A stretch of DNA of 44,033 bases. It comes from a virus. The notes beneath the pieces are model-generated. The model was not told the DNA's origin, did no database searches, and saw only the letters and a program-made list of their open reading frames with translations. Positions 2,845-42,169 of this stretch are shown piece after piece. How positions within the stretch are numbered: position 1 is the stretch's first letter; the number at the start of each line of letters is the position of its first letter. The stretch lies in the UHGV virus genome UHGV-0039449. One strand, 5' to 3'. A program made the translations under genes and the position numbers.

Positions 2845-3786
2845 TTACATAGATGTTTCGTTTAATTCTTCCCGACGAACGCTGTAAACGTCGGTGGCTT
2901 TTGCCAGCAGTTCGTCATCATCTGAAAGTTTTTGTGCAATGTATTTGTAAGCCTTATCCAGTTCGGAGACAGTGCTGTAATTCATCGCTGCGCTGGTAAA
3001 GGCCATCAGCATTTCTTCTGGATCACGGCTATCCGCTTTACGAGTTTGCTCATCAGGCTTTTTCACTGGTTTAGCGTTGATCAGACTGTTCATTCCCGCA
3101 GCAGTAGTTGTTTGCGGAGTAATGTCTCGCTCAACGCGCGGTGCCGTTTCCTGTAATTCGTCTGGTGTGTAGACGCCCATGATTACGTCAGGACAGTGCA
3201 AGCGAGACCAGCGTTTTGTCGCAAGGTATGCGAGTTGTTGTTTCGGATCACTGGCCCAAAGTGTGGAGTTTCTTACCTGTGCTTGAGACAGCATTAACTC
3301 AAGCACTCGAGGTTGATCCTCGCCCTTCATGGTTGCCCATACGCGAACACCGCAGCCTTCTTCGTCTTTTAGAGTCCAGCCTGGTGCGATATATGGATTG
3401 CCGTTTTTGGATGTTTTCTCAACAAACTTACCGATCACGCGTTCCCACGGCCCGAACCACTCGTAGTTGATGCGATCTTTTGTTGGCGACATCGTTGAGA
3501 TAACTGCGTTTACTAATTGGGCTTCATAACCTAGCGTGCCGTTCACAACATGGGTTTTCTGAGCAACGGCAAACGGGTTCATTCCCCACTGCGCAGCCTG
3601 CATTGCCACGGCCATGCAATCAGCTGGTTTCCCGGCGAGGTGCGCCGGTACCGTTACGCGGCTTTGCGCCATTACCTCGGCGAATTTCATCAGTTGGTTC
3701 AAGCCGTCTGGGCTGAAAATAGTTGCAGCAGTTCCAGCGATTGCTGTGTCTACTGGTGCGTTGATGTTTGCGATGTCGTTGCTCAT
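2845..3786 (-). CDS. recT: RecT-family single-strand annealing recombinase
   Basis: About 313 aa with RecT-like core (GMNPFAV...AYLATKRW). ATG overlaps the stop of the upstream exonuclease gene (ATGA). Confidence 0.8.
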   Translation of the reverse strand: MSNDIANINAPVDTAIAGTAATIFSPDGLNQLMKFAEVMAQSRVTVPAHLAGKPADCMAVAMQAAQWGMNPFAVAQKTHVVNGTLGYEAQLVNAVISTMSPTKDRINYEWFGPWERVIGKFVEKTSKNGNPYIAPGWTLKDEEGCGVRVWATMKGEDQPRVLELMLSQAQVRNSTLWASDPKQQLAYLATKRWSRLHCPDVIMGVYTPDELQETAPRVERDITPQTTTAAGMNSLINAKPVKKPDEQTRKADSRDPEEMLMAFTSAAMNYSTVSELDKAYKYIAQKLSDDDELLAKATDVYSVRREELNETSM

Positions 3787-4604
3787 ATGTACATATCCTG
3801 TTTGCGTGCCCACTCAGGGCGTTTAATGATTTCCACACCGCCCCATTCATCATTGATGCGGCATTCGTGATAGGTATTCAGATCCCGGCGGAACAGAGCG
3901 TGCCCGGCATCGACATCCTGCGCATCCAGCTCGAACACGCGTACCGGATACCGACCACAATCAATGCTTTCGCTCACGGCAAGAAAGAAAAAACCATGCG
4001 GCTGACCAGTAACCCTCATTGCGCCTTCGCGGTACATTGCGTCCTGCACGTGGTAGCGGAATTCTTCGATGTGGCGTGCAAAACGGTCCATATCTGCAAC
4101 CTTTTTCACGTCGACGATCACGTTGTGCTCGTTCAGCCATTTGTCTGGACGAATGCGGCACAACTCACCAGTCTCTTCATCGTTCCAGTACATTGATGCT
4201 TCGCAGTAACCAGGTGCTTCCAGCATCCAGCGTGCCGCCGGGTGAGCCATTGCGCTATCACGCATCAGCTCCAGTTTCCGCCACTGCTCGGCATCAAGTA
4301 CCGCAATCCCCATATCCGCTACATCACGAAGAAATGCTTCTTCGTCAGCTTTACCTTGTTTCGTCCGACGATCGAACTTTGGTGAAACAATGAAGCGTTT
4401 GTCGAATTCTCCAGGTTCAAGAAGCAGACAGTGCAATGCAGTTCCCATATCTAGTGCAGACTTTTTCTCTTCGTCTTCTGGTGCTGCCTGAACCCATTTA
4501 AGAAGCGCCGGATTCTTGGCAACCATGTCCAGTTGCGACTTACTCACGCCGTCACCGGCGTGGTAGTCCTCATTGCTGATGTCGAAATAGATGCCAGTAT
4601 TCAT
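3783..4604 (-). CDS. RecE-like PD-(D/E)xK exonuclease (exonuclease VIII-type)
   Basis: 273 aa; N-terminus GIYFDISNEDYHAGDGVSKSQL and IVDVKK motif typical of the RecE C-terminal nuclease fold; paired with RecT. Confidence 0.75.
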   Translation of the reverse strand: MNTGIYFDISNEDYHAGDGVSKSQLDMVAKNPALLKWVQAAPEDEEKKSALDMGTALHCLLLEPGEFDKRFIVSPKFDRRTKQGKADEEAFLRDVADMGIAVLDAEQWRKLELMRDSAMAHPAARWMLEAPGYCEASMYWNDEETGELCRIRPDKWLNEHNVIVDVKKVADMDRFARHIEEFRYHVQDAMYREGAMRVTGQPHGFFFLAVSESIDCGRYPVRVFELDAQDVDAGHALFRRDLNTYHECRINDEWGGVEIIKRPEWARKQDMYI

Positions 4605-4807
4605 AACTTAACCTTGTATTCGTTCTGCTTGTTGGAACGGGTTCCATCGTGGAAATATATTGCGCTCCTGGTTACCTCTACCCATTTGCGACGTTCAAGC
4701 TCAGCGATGAACCAAGAAACCTTCGATCTTGAGATACCAAGAATCTTTGCCATATCTCGGATGCTGTGTTTTCCACCTCGCAGCAATGAGATGAGTGTTG
4801 GTTTCAT
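4601..4807 (-). CDS. Small HTH DNA-binding protein
   Basis: 68 aa; SIRDMAKILGISRSKVSWFIAELERRKWV is HTH-like; overlaps both neighbours by 4 nt. Confidence 0.5.
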   Translation of the reverse strand: MKPTLISLLRGGKHSIRDMAKILGISRSKVSWFIAELERRKWVEVTRSAIYFHDGTRSNKQNEYKVKL

Positions 4808-5103
4808 GCCGCGTCCCTCTGTCCATCAAGCTGATCCGCCAGATCCCAGCGGGCGATAATTGCCATTGCCTCTCGCCGATAGGCATCCATCAGTTCTTCG
4901 AACTCAGGGCTGTCTTTAGCAGCCTCCAGTACTTCCTGGCGAACGCCTTTGCCTGTTACAACGTCGAAAGTTGAGGACAGTTGATGAATTCGGATGCTCT
5001 CAATCAGTTCAACTTGTCGGTCATATAGCTGTTCTGACAGGCGGTAGTCCTTGTCGAATGCCAGCATGATTTTTTGAAGATTTTTCTGCTGATTAACGTT
5101 CAT
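4804..5103 (-). CDS. Hypothetical protein
   Basis: 99 aa from ATG 5103, with GGGAGGG RBS 6 nt upstream. No recognisable domain. Confidence 0.45.
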   Translation of the reverse strand: MNVNQQKNLQKIMLAFDKDYRLSEQLYDRQVELIESIRIHQLSSTFDVVTGKGVRQEVLEAAKDSPEFEELMDAYRREAMAIIARWDLADQLDGQRDAA

Positions 5104-14467: not shown

Positions 14468-14544
14468 TGGCGCGGCATGCAGGATTCGAACCTGCGACCA
14501 ACCGCTTAGAAGGCGGTTGCTCTGTCCAACTGAGCTAATGCCAC
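14468..14544 (-). tRNA. tRNA-Arg (anticodon UCU), phage-encoded
   Basis: 77-nt cloverleaf folded by hand from the minus strand: acceptor GTGGCAT/ATGCCGC, D-arm GCTC/GAGC, anticodon stem ACCGC/GCGGT with loop CTTCTAA, T-arm GCAGG-TTCGAAT-CCTGC, encoded CCA. Confidence 0.8.
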
Positions 14545-38724: not shown

Positions 38725-38869
38725 TTTCCGGTGACGGTATATAAAACGGTACGGGAAAAGTTGAGGCTTGGAAAAGTGTTATCACTCAATTGTTTATGGT
38801 TGTCGTAAATAATTGAGTGGGAGTAGGACTGGCTATAAATAGTAAATTAAGCCTTTCCAACTAACTTTA

Positions 38870-39120: not shown

Positions 39121-39897
39121 TTATGAGCCATTGGTAATCGCACCCATGACAATTTGAAAGAGTTCTTCTGCTCGATTAGTGGAGCCAATTGCACCTCTTT
39201 CTCTCGCCATTCTCTTGTGCTCTGGTAGATCTGAGGACGCATAGATCATAAAAGGAGTTTTGTCTCCCATTGCGCGTAATCTTTCTAGTAAGACATAACC
39301 TTCTTGCGCCCCTTCTTTGCGATCCATATCCGAAATAATAGCTGCAAACTTATTTGTTTTTAACAATTCTAAGGCTTCGTCAGTTGAAAGAGCTAAAGCG
39401 AACTCTATTCCCTGTGCCTCAAATGCCTGTCTTTCGTAAACATTATTTTCTGGTCGATCATCCACCCATAAAATACGATTTCGCCATTTTTCATGCTTAC
39501 TCTGCCGTTTTGCATTGGATACAACGTTGACGATTTTTCGCAGTTGGCTTTCAGTGACCCCTGCACTATTTTCAGGCTGTTTTGCTGTGGCGGCGGTCAA
39601 TGATGCTGCTGTAGCTATTTGCGCTCTTAAAAAATTATTTTCATCTTTGAAATCTGACGGCCCGTAAAGCTTATTATGATGTTTCGCAACAAGCCAGAGA
39701 AAGCCAAGAAACACAATGACAGGAAAGAAAACCATGAAATAAATAAGGGGAGCTATATGCTCTGATAAGCCATTACCAAAGCCAACGACGAAAGAGGCAA
39801 ATCCATAAACGAGAACAATAAAGAGTGCAATGATACCAAGAGGGCTTTTGGTAAATCCTATTGCAGTTTCAGCAAATTTCTCTGGTTCCATATCCAT
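39121..39897 (-). CDS. Two-TM membrane protein with C-terminal CheY-like receiver (REC) domain; orphan
   Basis: 258 aa. Two hydrophobic helices, then REC-like hallmarks: ILWVDDRPENN (beta1 acidic pair), AAIISDMDR (beta3 Asp), PFMIYASS (beta4 Ser). Likely start is the third codon, ATG 39891 (GAGG 6 nt upstream). No histidine kinase in the window. Confidence 0.5.
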   Translation of the reverse strand: MDMEPEKFAETAIGFTKSPLGIIALFIVLVYGFASFVVGFGNGLSEHIAPLIYFMVFFPVIVFLGFLWLVAKHHNKLYGPSDFKDENNFLRAQIATAASLTAATAKQPENSAGVTESQLRKIVNVVSNAKRQSKHEKWRNRILWVDDRPENNVYERQAFEAQGIEFALALSTDEALELLKTNKFAAIISDMDRKEGAQEGYVLLERLRAMGDKTPFMIYASSDLPEHKRMARERGAIGSTNRAEELFQIVMGAITNGS

Positions 39898-39984: not shown

Positions 39985-40380
39985 TTACATCTGGCTTAAG
40001 TTTTTCTCATCCCAGATGTGCTTTCCATCAAGTAACGTTTCCATCGGCGTTCGGCCACTGCACATTTTTCCCTGATGGGTTCGCTCATTATTATAGTGAA
40101 CCCGCCATTCATCAAGAACCGATTGTAATGCTTCAAGATCATCATATAACTTTTTGCGGAACGTCACCTGATAAAACTCGTTCAGTATCGTTTTATGGAA
40201 CTGCTCGCAGATACTATTGGTCTTAGATGACATTGCTTTCGTTTTCGTATGCTCAATATCATTTATCGCCAGATAAAGCTGGTAATCATGCTGCTCCACT
40301 TTACCGCAATCTCTTGGTGTATTGAGAGGCGGGTTATAAAATAAATACTGATACCATGAGGGCGGATCAATCGTGGTCAT
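39985..40380 (-). pseudogene. DDE transposase remnant (IS481/IS3-like integrase core, internally deleted)
   Basis: 131-aa ORF with no RBS; SKTNSICEQFHKTILNEF and DEWRVHYNNERTHQG resemble the C-terminal motifs of rve-type transposases; N-terminal HTH part missing. Confidence 0.4.
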
Positions 40381-40395
40381 AGTATCAGGTCATTC

Positions 40396-41910
40396 TCATG
40401 GGTTTATTGCGTCCCTGAAGATGACGTCGCTGACCATCTCTCCTCCAAGAAAATCGATCAACATATTCGAGTTTTCAAGGTCTTCTCTGGTCAATGCCCC
40501 GATTGCTTGTCCAACTACTACCTCCCAAGGTTTTTTACACTCAACAATAGCACAGACGAGTTGGCGGATTTTCTTGATCTTCTTGTGACGCAATCGGTCG
40601 TTCGATTCCATTAGTTTTGCAATCAACGCTATGTCGGAGTGTGTTTGATTATCCTCAACCCATTTTTTGGCTGCGTCTACAAATTCCACCCATGTAACAT
40701 TCATTACTGCAAGGCATGAATCAGTCAAAAGAACATTTTCGATAGCGTAGCATCGTAAGCGATAGCGTTTAAGAGGTAGGCGATGTTCAAGCGACTCGTT
40801 GATTACACCATCGCCATCACGAAGGGAAAAGGCGATTGGATTGTCATAGAGTGTACTAAGGAGGTCTACGCAAAAATCCTCAAGTTGACTCTGTTGATCT
40901 ACGCTACCTGCTAGTACGGGAAAGATTTTTATTCGACCCTGTGATGTTCTGGCCGCTTGTTGCCAGACTCGTTCGTCGTCCTCTCCTTCCAAAATTAATG
41001 CAGCGTCTTCGCTAAGAGAAAGCGATAGGGGGTGCCCGAAGAATGGTGCAATCTTTCGAAGTTCATCGCTGGCCGGTATCAATGAGATTTCATTCACTGC
41101 AAAGCTCTTCGTGCCGATTGATACATATGGGGAGGCGGCAAGAGAACAGACGAGCGGGGAACTATGGGTGGATAAGCATATGGCAATACTGTTCGCGTGT
41201 GTTCTAAATTCGTCGAGCATACTGATTATCAGCTTGCCCAGTCTAGCTTGGAGGTCGGGGTGCAGATGTACATCAGGCTCATCGAGGAGGAGTACGTTGA
41301 ATTTCTCCGGATCTATTGTGTCGAAGAAATAGATGATTTCCGCGGCTAATGCAACCGCTTCCGATTCACCGCTACTGATTTGGGCCGGATCAATAATCTG
41401 ACCATCTACAAGTGATCGAAACTCATAATCGACATTACCCATCTCGAGCGAAATGTTAGTGAGAAGCTGATTAATTTTACTTAATCGGTCTGTCTGAAAG
41501 TTTCGCGTTAGATCAGTTCGAATTTCCGGAGTATTGGCAAGTCGACGTAAGTAAAGCGTCTCGGCCTCGCGAAATAGCATAGCCGATGCAGCTTTGAAGT
41601 TGCTTGCCTGATTAACTGCCCGAGTGTGCCTCAGCCATTCGGGGTTGTCGCTCATATTTGTGAGGACGGTGCCATCACGCTTGAACGATCCTGCTCGCTC
41701 TGGACTTACATACCGGACATAAAATTGCTGCTTGTTCTGGCTGATTGTTTGTTCGATATCACGAAGGAAACGACTTTTTCCCGCACCGTTTCGGCCCATA
41801 ATTATGTTGATGTTGTTTAAGCCGTAAAGTCGGCCAATTTGGCTAGATAACTCGCTTACTTTCAAGATTGTAACTCCATTTTTTGTTGCCACATACGATA
41901 TCAAATACAC
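40396..41910 (-). CDS. OLD-family ABC-type ATPase fused to a Toprim/DUF4435-like nuclease domain (OLD / PARIS AriAB-like)
   Basis: Walker A GRNGAGKS; signature-like ISSGESE; Walker B/D-loop VLLLDEPDVHLHP; H-loop STHS; C-terminal LILEGEDDE ... LRDGDG ... CYAIENVLL as in Toprim/DUF4435. Start may be TTG 41865 (GGAG 8 nt upstream) rather than GTG 41910. Confidence 0.65.
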   Translation of the reverse strand: MYLISYVATKNGVTILKVSELSSQIGRLYGLNNINIIMGRNGAGKSRFLRDIEQTISQNKQQFYVRYVSPERAGSFKRDGTVLTNMSDNPEWLRHTRAVNQASNFKAASAMLFREAETLYLRRLANTPEIRTDLTRNFQTDRLSKINQLLTNISLEMGNVDYEFRSLVDGQIIDPAQISSGESEAVALAAEIIYFFDTIDPEKFNVLLLDEPDVHLHPDLQARLGKLIISMLDEFRTHANSIAICLSTHSSPLVCSLAASPYVSIGTKSFAVNEISLIPASDELRKIAPFFGHPLSLSLSEDAALILEGEDDERVWQQAARTSQGRIKIFPVLAGSVDQQSQLEDFCVDLLSTLYDNPIAFSLRDGDGVINESLEHRLPLKRYRLRCYAIENVLLTDSCLAVMNVTWVEFVDAAKKWVEDNQTHSDIALIAKLMESNDRLRHKKIKKIRQLVCAIVECKKPWEVVVGQAIGALTREDLENSNMLIDFLGGEMVSDVIFRDAINP

Positions 41911-42169
41911 TAACTGAATAGGTGCGTTGATGCCTCATTTTGTTCACATCTATGTTGAAATTAGTGATGTGACCGAGCTAAGGACTCTATTAGGAGTAGA
42001 GCGGCCATATTGTTCGTCTGAACAGCCTGTAGACAGCTCTATTATTGAGACATGGTATTTTTCGTGGTATCTGCTAAGTGGTTTGTTTCAATGCATTGAT
42101 TTATTTATATTTTATTTTCTCATTGATAGCTGAGTGGGAATGATTTTGATCCCTGCACTATGAATGAAC

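Follow-up and report, generated by a model that had tools for sequence, protein, structure and literature searches.

The window analysed here is a stretch of DNA of 44,033 nucleotides (UHGV virus genome UHGV-0039449), and the gene under study lies on its minus strand at 40396..41865. It encodes an ABC (ATP-binding cassette) ATPase fused to a Toprim nuclease domain in a single polypeptide of 489 amino acids (AA). The first-pass annotation, made from the letters of the window, had placed an open reading frame (ORF) at 40396-41910, and an ORF was found exactly there on the minus strand; read from a GTG at 41910, it would encode 504 AA. Judged from sequence conservation, the true product is the 489-AA form, which starts at a TTG at 41865 and stops at a TGA at 40396-40398, because the TTG, which has a GGAG Shine-Dalgarno sequence upstream of it, is kept in Klebsiella, Serratia and Pseudomonas, a one-base indel upstream of the TTG interrupts the longer reading frame in Pseudomonas, and the relatives have a uniform length of about 485-490 AA. 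The interval 40396..41865 is annotated in RefSeq as WP_000868467.1, an 'AAA family ATPase' of 489 AA. Thus, the lower end of the size proposed earlier (about 490-504 AA) holds and the GTG form is not conserved.

Residues 1-265, the N-terminal half, belong to the AAA_15/AAA_21 type of ABC ATPases and carry a complete set of motifs for ATP binding and hydrolysis (41071..41865; all features of the protein are given on the minus strand). In the hidden Markov model comparison that had been suggested, both Pfam profiles exceeded their cutoffs (AAA_15, 53 bits; AAA_21, 45 bits), and both were matched in 67 of 67 diverse relatives. These 67 sequences, which reach down to 27% identity, were used for all conservation values, and motif strings were compared in close relatives (n = 24). 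The Walker A motif G24-R-N-G-A-G-K30-S31 is encoded at 41773..41796, with K30 and S31 unvarying in the 67 relatives. The ABC signature S164-S-G-E-S-E169 follows at 41359..41376, with S164 unvarying and a conservation of at least 90% at S165, G166, E167 and E169. Walker B and D-loop form residues 191-203 (LLLDEPDVHLHPD, with D195, E196, P197 and H200; 41257..41295), a region aligned to LIEEPEISLH of GajA and LIDEPEISLH of AriA, and the H-loop T233-H234-S235 is found at 41161..41169 with H234 and S235 invariant. All ATPase motifs that had been read from the sequence were therefore recovered, and the strings GRNGAGKS, SSGESE, LLDEPDVHLHP and THS, as well as LEGEDDE, RDGDG and CYAIEN of the C-terminal half, do not vary in the 24 close relatives. 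Profile scores and residue conservation of this order go well beyond chance.

For comparison with solved structures, a profile of the 67 relatives was searched against the Protein Data Bank (PDB). The nearest solved proteins were AriA (E-value 5.6e-15) and PtuA of retrons and Septu (2e-14 to 3e-10), followed by the OLD protein of retron Eco8 (5e-12), GajA (4.5e-11) and Thermus OLD (3.4e-9); transport ABC proteins, Rad50 and SMC scored far more poorly. The nearest solved relatives of the ATPase half (AriA, PtuA, Eco8 OLD and GajA) are all defence ATPases. In addition, PtuA of NCBIfam gave a weak match. The full-length AlphaFold model (predicted local distance difference test, pLDDT, 76) was submitted to Foldseek, and GajA and Eco8 OLD led the list. 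Residues 107-237 align to AriA 307-432, and the region N-terminal to them aligns to AriA 24-143 at most. A short insertion at about residues 57-135, partly of low confidence in the model, occupies the site at which AriA carries its coiled-coil four-helix bundle. One relative (P0197, 885 AA) has an insertion of about 400 AA at this position, hence the site tolerates large inserts; another of the few much longer relatives (P0161, 1153 AA) is extended by about 530 AA at its N-terminus and by a tail at its C-terminus.

A Toprim nuclease domain with the full conserved acidic set makes up the C-terminal half. Its core (residues 286-380, 40726..41010) consists of strand 1 ending in E293, a helix, strand 2, a helix, strand 3, D350-x-D352, strand 4 and E376-N377. 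The glutamate motif E293-G-E-D296-D297-E298 is encoded at 40972..40989, the DxD motif R349-D350-G-D352-G at 40807..40821, and the third conserved acidic position, E376-N377 (98-100% conserved), at 40735..40740. No variation occurs at E293, D350 and D352, and 97-100% of the relatives have an acidic residue at D296, D297 and E376. The LEGEDDE, DGDG and IENVLL signatures noticed in the first pass are thus present, and the loss of catalytic Toprim residues, which it had named as a point that would speak against its reading, was not seen. A C-terminal helical bundle completes the protein (residues 381-489, 40399..40725; K431 invariant, W447 and G452 conserved) and is shorter than the helical domain of AriB.

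A sub-profile running from the Walker B motif into the Toprim core gave a co-linear alignment to GajA (E 8e-9, query positions 2-115). The alignment passes through the H-loop and the linker to the Toprim glutamate and places E293-G294 on GajA E379-G380; the Eco8 OLD alignment reaches the same strand. GajA E379 is the catalytic Toprim glutamate of that protein. The spacing of the acidic residues resembles that of AriB E26, D30, D88, E90 and E122 (PMC11464382), with E376 placed like AriB E122. This mapping onto AriB rests on spacing, conservation and fold, because a search with the C-terminal alignment for true DUF4435 proteins, which could have served for a profile-profile alignment, returned only members of the same family and fragments. 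The model of the C-terminal domain (pLDDT 84) had AriB as its single notable Foldseek match (E 0.014; next 0.5). The values listed for the C-terminal half were 7.2 for PH0156, 6.8 for the Thermus class 1 OLD, 6.6 for the Burkholderia class 2 OLD and 5.5 for GajA; below GajA stood a small Toprim protein, retron Ec67, DnaG primases and topoisomerases.

When the C-terminal domain alone was compared with 5,027 PADLOC models, matches were confined to AriB and AriAB, a sequence signal that is specific though weak. The AriB model was matched by 19 of 26 family members, and by the copy in the window with E 7.5e-6 over profile positions 4-99 of 236. For this protein, Pfam DUF4435 (PF14491) stayed at 13.1-15.8 bits, below the cutoff of 27; the C-terminal domains of 17 of the 26 relatives also matched below threshold (best E 3.6e-6), and no precomputed PF14491 call was present on any database relative. 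The 'Toprim/DUF4435 pattern' described earlier accordingly stands for the Toprim domain with its conserved acidic residues, and its DUF4435 part stays below the Pfam cutoff. The OLD Toprim profile, which had also been suggested for comparison, did not bear out an OLD-type nuclease: OLD-like_TOPRIM (PF20469) was matched weakly in only 1 of 67 or 2 of 26 relatives. Taken as an architecture, an ABC ATPase followed by a Toprim domain in an OLD/PARIS-like protein, the first-pass reading is borne out by the profile and fold matches.

The family was defined by its C-terminal domain and comprises 244 representative clusters among 1.84 billion proteins, nearly all of one architecture and about 480-500 AA long. 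Carriers include at least 458 species-representative genomes from Pseudomonadota, Bacteroidota, Cyanobacteriota, Planctomycetota, Verrucomicrobiota, Actinomycetota, Gemmatimonadota, Fusobacteriales and lineages of the candidate phyla radiation (CPR). To search for a partner, the ORFs on either side of the gene were all clustered for 80 loci drawn from many phyla. No conserved partner gene was found in these loci; the largest neighbour cluster covered 6 loci at varying offsets and was IS (insertion sequence)-transposase-like. Short 'C-terminal only' proteins are copies broken within the ATPase domain (211 + 271 AA; 221 + 251 AA). The family is therefore a constant single-chain, single-gene unit with domains always fused. 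A split two-gene version was considered and rejected, as the candidates are broken inside the ATPase domain and do not correspond to splits of the AriA/AriB type. Such two-ORF copies lie at 3357-4816 of locus L097, 295-1754 of L098 and 3295-4756 of L096. As one of them recurred on 12 contigs, these are probably true pseudogenes and not errors of sequencing.

Within the subclade of the Escherichia coli protein, identity is 72-81% among Enterobacterales, Pseudomonas, Halomonadaceae and alphaproteobacteria. Synonymous sites are saturated, the non-synonymous rate dN is 0.12-0.18 and dN/dS is ≤ 0.05, and the G+C content at third codon positions has drifted with the host from 0.46 to 0.68. The gene is under long-term strong purifying selection. 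Recent horizontal transfer was rejected as the source of the high identity between bacterial classes, since synonymous sites are saturated. The high conservation, together with the wide spread, suggests a robust and portable module.

Over the stretch compared, the window matches E. coli NZ_CP095086.1 at 100%. The order in this genome is guaA, a tyrosine integrase and a prophage of about 39 kb ending in lysis genes, an attachment core, a receiver protein, an IS fragment, the ATPase-Toprim gene, a guaA-end remnant (42131-42143) and yfgI; in K-12, the spacer between guaA and yfgI is 92 bp. The attachment-site core, a copy of the guaA 3' end (ATTGAGTGGGAGTAG, 38812..38826, plus strand), marks the boundary to the prophage and the left border of an islet of 3.3 kb. 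Its right border is the displaced guaA 3'-end remnant (TGAGTGGGAATGA, 42131..42143, plus strand), where K-12 homology resumes. Hence, the islet is flanked by imperfect direct repeats of the guaA terminus, and in the window a prophage and an older islet stand in tandem with copies of the guaA terminus between them. The surroundings are AT-rich, as had been noted (G+C 0.42-0.46 on the islet side vs. about 0.50 in the prophage).

Among 5,426 complete E. coli genomes, 28 carry the gene, always on the chromosome and in a single copy. A prophage adjoins the gene in only 6 of the 28 carriers, and in the other 22 the islet exists with no prophage beside the gene. The gene was therefore rejected as cargo of the present prophage. 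The position at a prophage-host junction, given in the first-pass annotation, is correct for the window and does not hold for most carriers. Being rare and carried on integrative elements, the gene is accessory and mobile. This distribution contradicts a housekeeping role, in which the protein would be a RecF/RecN/SMC-type ATPase of repair or chromosome maintenance and its C-terminal motifs coincidental. The very strong conservation speaks for such a role, and so do weak matches to SMC_N, Rad50 and SMC3, which are confined to the ATPase motifs (SMC_N reached 21 bits against a cutoff of 40). However, the gene is found in only 0.5% of E. coli genomes, is patchily distributed, has a G+C content below that of its hosts and is carried on islands, and the C-terminal half has a Toprim nuclease fold with invariant catalytic-type residues. 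We consider a housekeeping function extremely improbable; a grouping with RecF/RecN, which the earlier annotation had regarded as a possible objection, is not what was found.

The 265 nt upstream of the start codon form a conserved non-coding 5' leader (41866..42130, minus strand), shared with Klebsiella, with Serratia (identity about 92%) and with Pseudomonas (about 74%). It probably holds the promoter and an arm of the attachment site. A simple promoter scan found no promoter-like site in the leader, and its sole minus-strand match (41828-41801) lies within the coding sequence. An Rfam scan of the leader and the islet for structured RNA returned nothing better than E 0.15; a structured RNA was set aside, as an attachment-site arm plus promoter is the simpler reading. 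Downstream of the gene, a hairpin (CTGATACYATGA...TCATGGTATCAG) with a T-rich tail (40335..40388, minus strand) is conserved in four genera, has a folding energy of -18.9 kcal/mol (z -3.6) and is likely the intrinsic terminator of the gene. The adjoining IS fragment mentioned in the first pass is present as the C-terminal part of an rve_3 integrase core (39986..40309, minus strand) and cuts the module off at 40310. A 131-AA ORF at 39985-40380 (minus strand) is chimeric, with the first ~24 codons taken from the terminator hairpin and adjoining downstream sequence, both part of the ATPase module; only 39986-40309 is the rve_3 transposase fragment.

The other gene of the islet (39121..39897, minus strand) encodes two predicted N-terminal membrane helices and a receiver (REC) domain (Pfam Response_reg, 31.7 bits) with no output domain. 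Because of a weak cREC_REC match, this protein might belong to a conflict system. It is conceivable that both genes form a two-gene signalling and effector system with the membrane-anchored receiver as partner, as they occur together in the islet of E. coli and of Klebsiella aerogenes (3.4 kb, 91.6% identical including the receiver gene). However, the receiver is absent beside the ATPase gene in Serratia, Pseudomonas, Mesorhizobium, Sphingobium and Microvirga, it did not recur in the 80 loci, and the IS fragment and the terminator stand between the two genes. A joint system is therefore highly unlikely, and the response regulator was rejected as partner since it is not conserved beside the ATPase gene.

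The guaA-end remnant, the leader, the ORF and the terminator hairpin constitute a module of about 1.83 kb (window 42144-40310), which is shared at the DNA level with Klebsiella aerogenes, with Serratia (92%) and with Pseudomonas aeruginosa (74%). The module adjoins guaA or a guaA-end remnant in seven genera; it lies at or near guaA in Klebsiella, Serratia, Kluyvera, Vreelandella and Carnimonas, and a guaA-end remnant precedes it in Klebsiella, Serratia and Pseudomonas (at about 7704 of locus L002). In Pseudomonas, the ATPase-Toprim gene stands last in a conjugative element which carries the type IV secretion genes TrbI, CagX, VirB8 and TrbL. Several gammaproteobacterial genera share the 3' end of guaA as a hotspot of integration, and the simplest interpretation makes the gene the cargo nearest the attachment site of elements integrating there. 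By the same interpretation, the E. coli islet is a decayed remnant of such an element, cut by the IS at 40310, and a later prophage used the same site. The notion of a defence cargo is thus kept for an older, decayed element at the guaA attachment site and dropped for the adjacent prophage.

Other small modules were recorded with the gene downstream of guaA: an antitoxin pair of the PhdYeFM type in Klebsiella aerogenes (L008, 4999-5595) and a HipA-like kinase toxin module in Serratia (L009, 7780-9622). Within the conjugative element of Pseudomonas aeruginosa, the ATPase gene is directly followed downstream by a gene for a protein of 1,341 AA with a helix-turn-helix (HTH) and a STAND NTPase domain (L002-L004, 9885-13910), which is another candidate defence gene. 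The prophage in the window (about 1-38811, ~39 kb) carries the tyrosine integrase near guaA, an MT-A70 methyltransferase, a recombination pair of RecT and a PD-(D/E)XK protein, internal virion proteins of the T7 gp14 type, an endolysin of glycoside hydrolase family 19 and a DUF2514 spanin-like gene. It also encodes a tRNA-Arg (anticodon UCU) at 14468-14544 (minus strand). The loss of host tRNAs to Toprim nucleases such as AriB and P2 Old can be made good by tRNAs from a phage, and this tRNA could matter if the neighbouring nuclease targets tRNA.

The gene might serve the mobile element rather than sense phages, as an addiction, exclusion or competition module which stabilises the guaA elements or attacks rivals and incoming DNA. 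In gammaproteobacteria it always lies nearest to the attachment site of elements which target guaA, accompanied by a conserved non-coding arm. Its place at the end of the Pseudomonas element and the toxin-antitoxin genes adjoining it in Klebsiella and Serratia point the same way, and a conserved cue from the cell or the element would agree with the strong conservation. However, alphaproteobacteria and other phyla carry the gene outside a guaA context, often with no recognisable mobile genes nearby, no antitoxin-like partner was found, and the relatives of known function are all phage-defence proteins. A service to the element alone was considered fairly unlikely.

By analogy with these relatives, a role in defence is probable. 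The reading we favour, with moderate confidence, is that of an autonomous nuclease of the OLD/PARIS kind in a single chain, which is gated in cis by its ATPase, cuts tRNA or DNA and aborts infection. The mechanistic analogies were drawn from PMC11464382, PMC10802264, PMC12409363 and PMC12445682. The protein consists of a minimal ABC ATPase head (residues 1-265), a conserved linker (APFFGHPLSL) and an AriB-like Toprim domain with a short helical bundle (residues 286-489). As in AriA-AriB, P2 Old and GajA, two ATPase heads may dimerise around ATP and keep the tethered nuclease inactive until a cue tied to infection or foreign DNA shifts the state of the ATPase. As the tether of the nuclease is covalent and the coiled-coil region which binds the trigger in AriA is missing, activation would have to occur in cis, by a conformational change. 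The course known from two-protein PARIS, in which a trigger binds at the coiled coil and AriB is set free and dimerises, cannot hold here in the literal sense. The Toprim domains, probably paired in the dimer, would cut a structured nucleic acid by two-metal catalysis. AriB cuts tRNA-Lys and tRNA-Thr (PMC11464382, PMC12409363) and P2 Old removes the tRNA anticodon arm (PMC12445682); the most likely target here would likewise be the anticodon stem of host tRNA, with DNA as the alternative, as for GajA. Cleavage would halt translation or replication, arrest growth and thereby abort the infection.

Several observations weigh against an autonomous anti-phage nuclease of this kind. The sequence link to AriB is weak, with DUF4435 at 13-16 bits against a cutoff of 27 and a Foldseek E-value of only 0.014. 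Three profiles of the C-terminal domain, of rising diversity, found no AriB or OLD by sequence when searched against solved chains; only the sub-profile including Walker B reached GajA. An identity of ~80% between E. coli and alphaproteobacteria is atypical for sensors which track fast-evolving phage proteins. The usual setting of the gene is outside recognisable defence islands, and the copies of Sphingobium and Mesorhizobium lie among ordinary genes. In phage and plasmid collections the family was not found (the sole plasmid match was a mislabelled chromosome), unlike canonical PARIS. Finally, the literature searched contained no paper on this protein and no experiment on any fused PARIS-like protein.

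A broader idea is put forward tentatively and is, in our judgement, doubtful rather than probable: the family of ~485 AA might be a distinct, self-contained class of ATPase-Toprim immune proteins, neither PARIS nor class 1 OLD, which senses a conserved perturbation of the host instead of a variable protein of the phage and is activated in cis. Such sensing would parallel that of P2 Old, which senses the loss of RecBCD, and would explain a dN/dS ≤ 0.05 across classes, the lack of a coiled-coil trigger region and the spread over more than 10 phyla including CPR. As the smallest ATPase-Toprim unit in the analysis, the family offers a one-gene model of how an ATPase gates a Toprim domain in the absence of a scaffold, a partner or release. 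For uropathogenic and avian-pathogenic lineages of E. coli, the gene is a further, rare candidate for defence.

Among the known systems, PtuA of Septu and type I-A retrons has an ATPase domain to which the present one is nearly as similar as to AriA (2e-14). However, PtuA pairs with a separate HNH nuclease, PtuB, whereas the effector here is the fused Toprim domain. GajA, the class 2 OLD protein of Gabija, is co-linear from Walker B to the Toprim glutamate and was the top Foldseek match for the full-length model. It differs by its GajB-type helicase partner and its helical insert in the Toprim domain, both of which are missing here, and the present protein is ~90 AA shorter (PMC10568477). Class 1 OLD proteins (P2 Old and Thermus scotoductus OLD) share with it the ABC ATPase and Toprim domain in one polypeptide encoded by a lone gene. 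The 489-AA protein is 40-100 AA shorter than these, has no OLD-type dimerisation domain of comparable size and, with PF20469 hardly matched, carries a nuclease nearer to AriB than to OLD.

With PARIS, the protein shares the same two modules in the same order. According to the rule of Rousset et al. (PMC9122126), a PARIS system is called at 32 bits for AAA_15 or 27 bits for AAA_21, together with 27 bits for DUF4435. The ATPase half lies above these values, whereas the nuclease half does not reach its threshold; by the DUF4435 rule, membership in PARIS is borderline because the score falls below the Pfam threshold. An AriB-type Toprim fold with conserved acidic residues is present and the AriA coiled-coil bundle is not. 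In AriA, this four-helix bundle builds the hexamer and binds Ocr (PMC10802264), and ~165-190 of its residues have no counterpart here. With 489 AA against AriA (464 AA) plus AriB (306 AA) and against the 694 positions of the PADLOC AriAB model, the 'compact variant' suspected in the first pass is an apt description. The helical domain behind the Toprim core is shorter as well.

The protein could be canonical PARIS in a fused form, in which an AriA-like hexamer senses anti-restriction proteins such as Ocr and the Toprim domain cleaves tRNA-Lys. Fused AriAB proteins have been reported (PMC9122126, PMC11464382), and a review of OLD proteins leaves it unclear whether these form a class of their own or act as class 1 OLD does (PMC10568477). 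A match to the PADLOC AriAB model (E 2.6e-14, 50.8 bits) spans both domains, but covers just positions 220-523 of 694, i.e., 44% of the profile, and positions 100-236 of the AriB profile, past the Toprim core, are unmatched. The nuclease of two-protein PARIS is released, whereas release of the fused nuclease is physically impossible, and the bundle that forms the hexamer interface and binds Ocr is the part that is missing. Fused canonical PARIS is thus decidedly unlikely, and an autonomous, cis-gated nuclease remains the reading we favour. As AriA is the best solved match of its ATPase and AriB the best fold match of its nuclease, the protein is nevertheless closest to PARIS in both halves.

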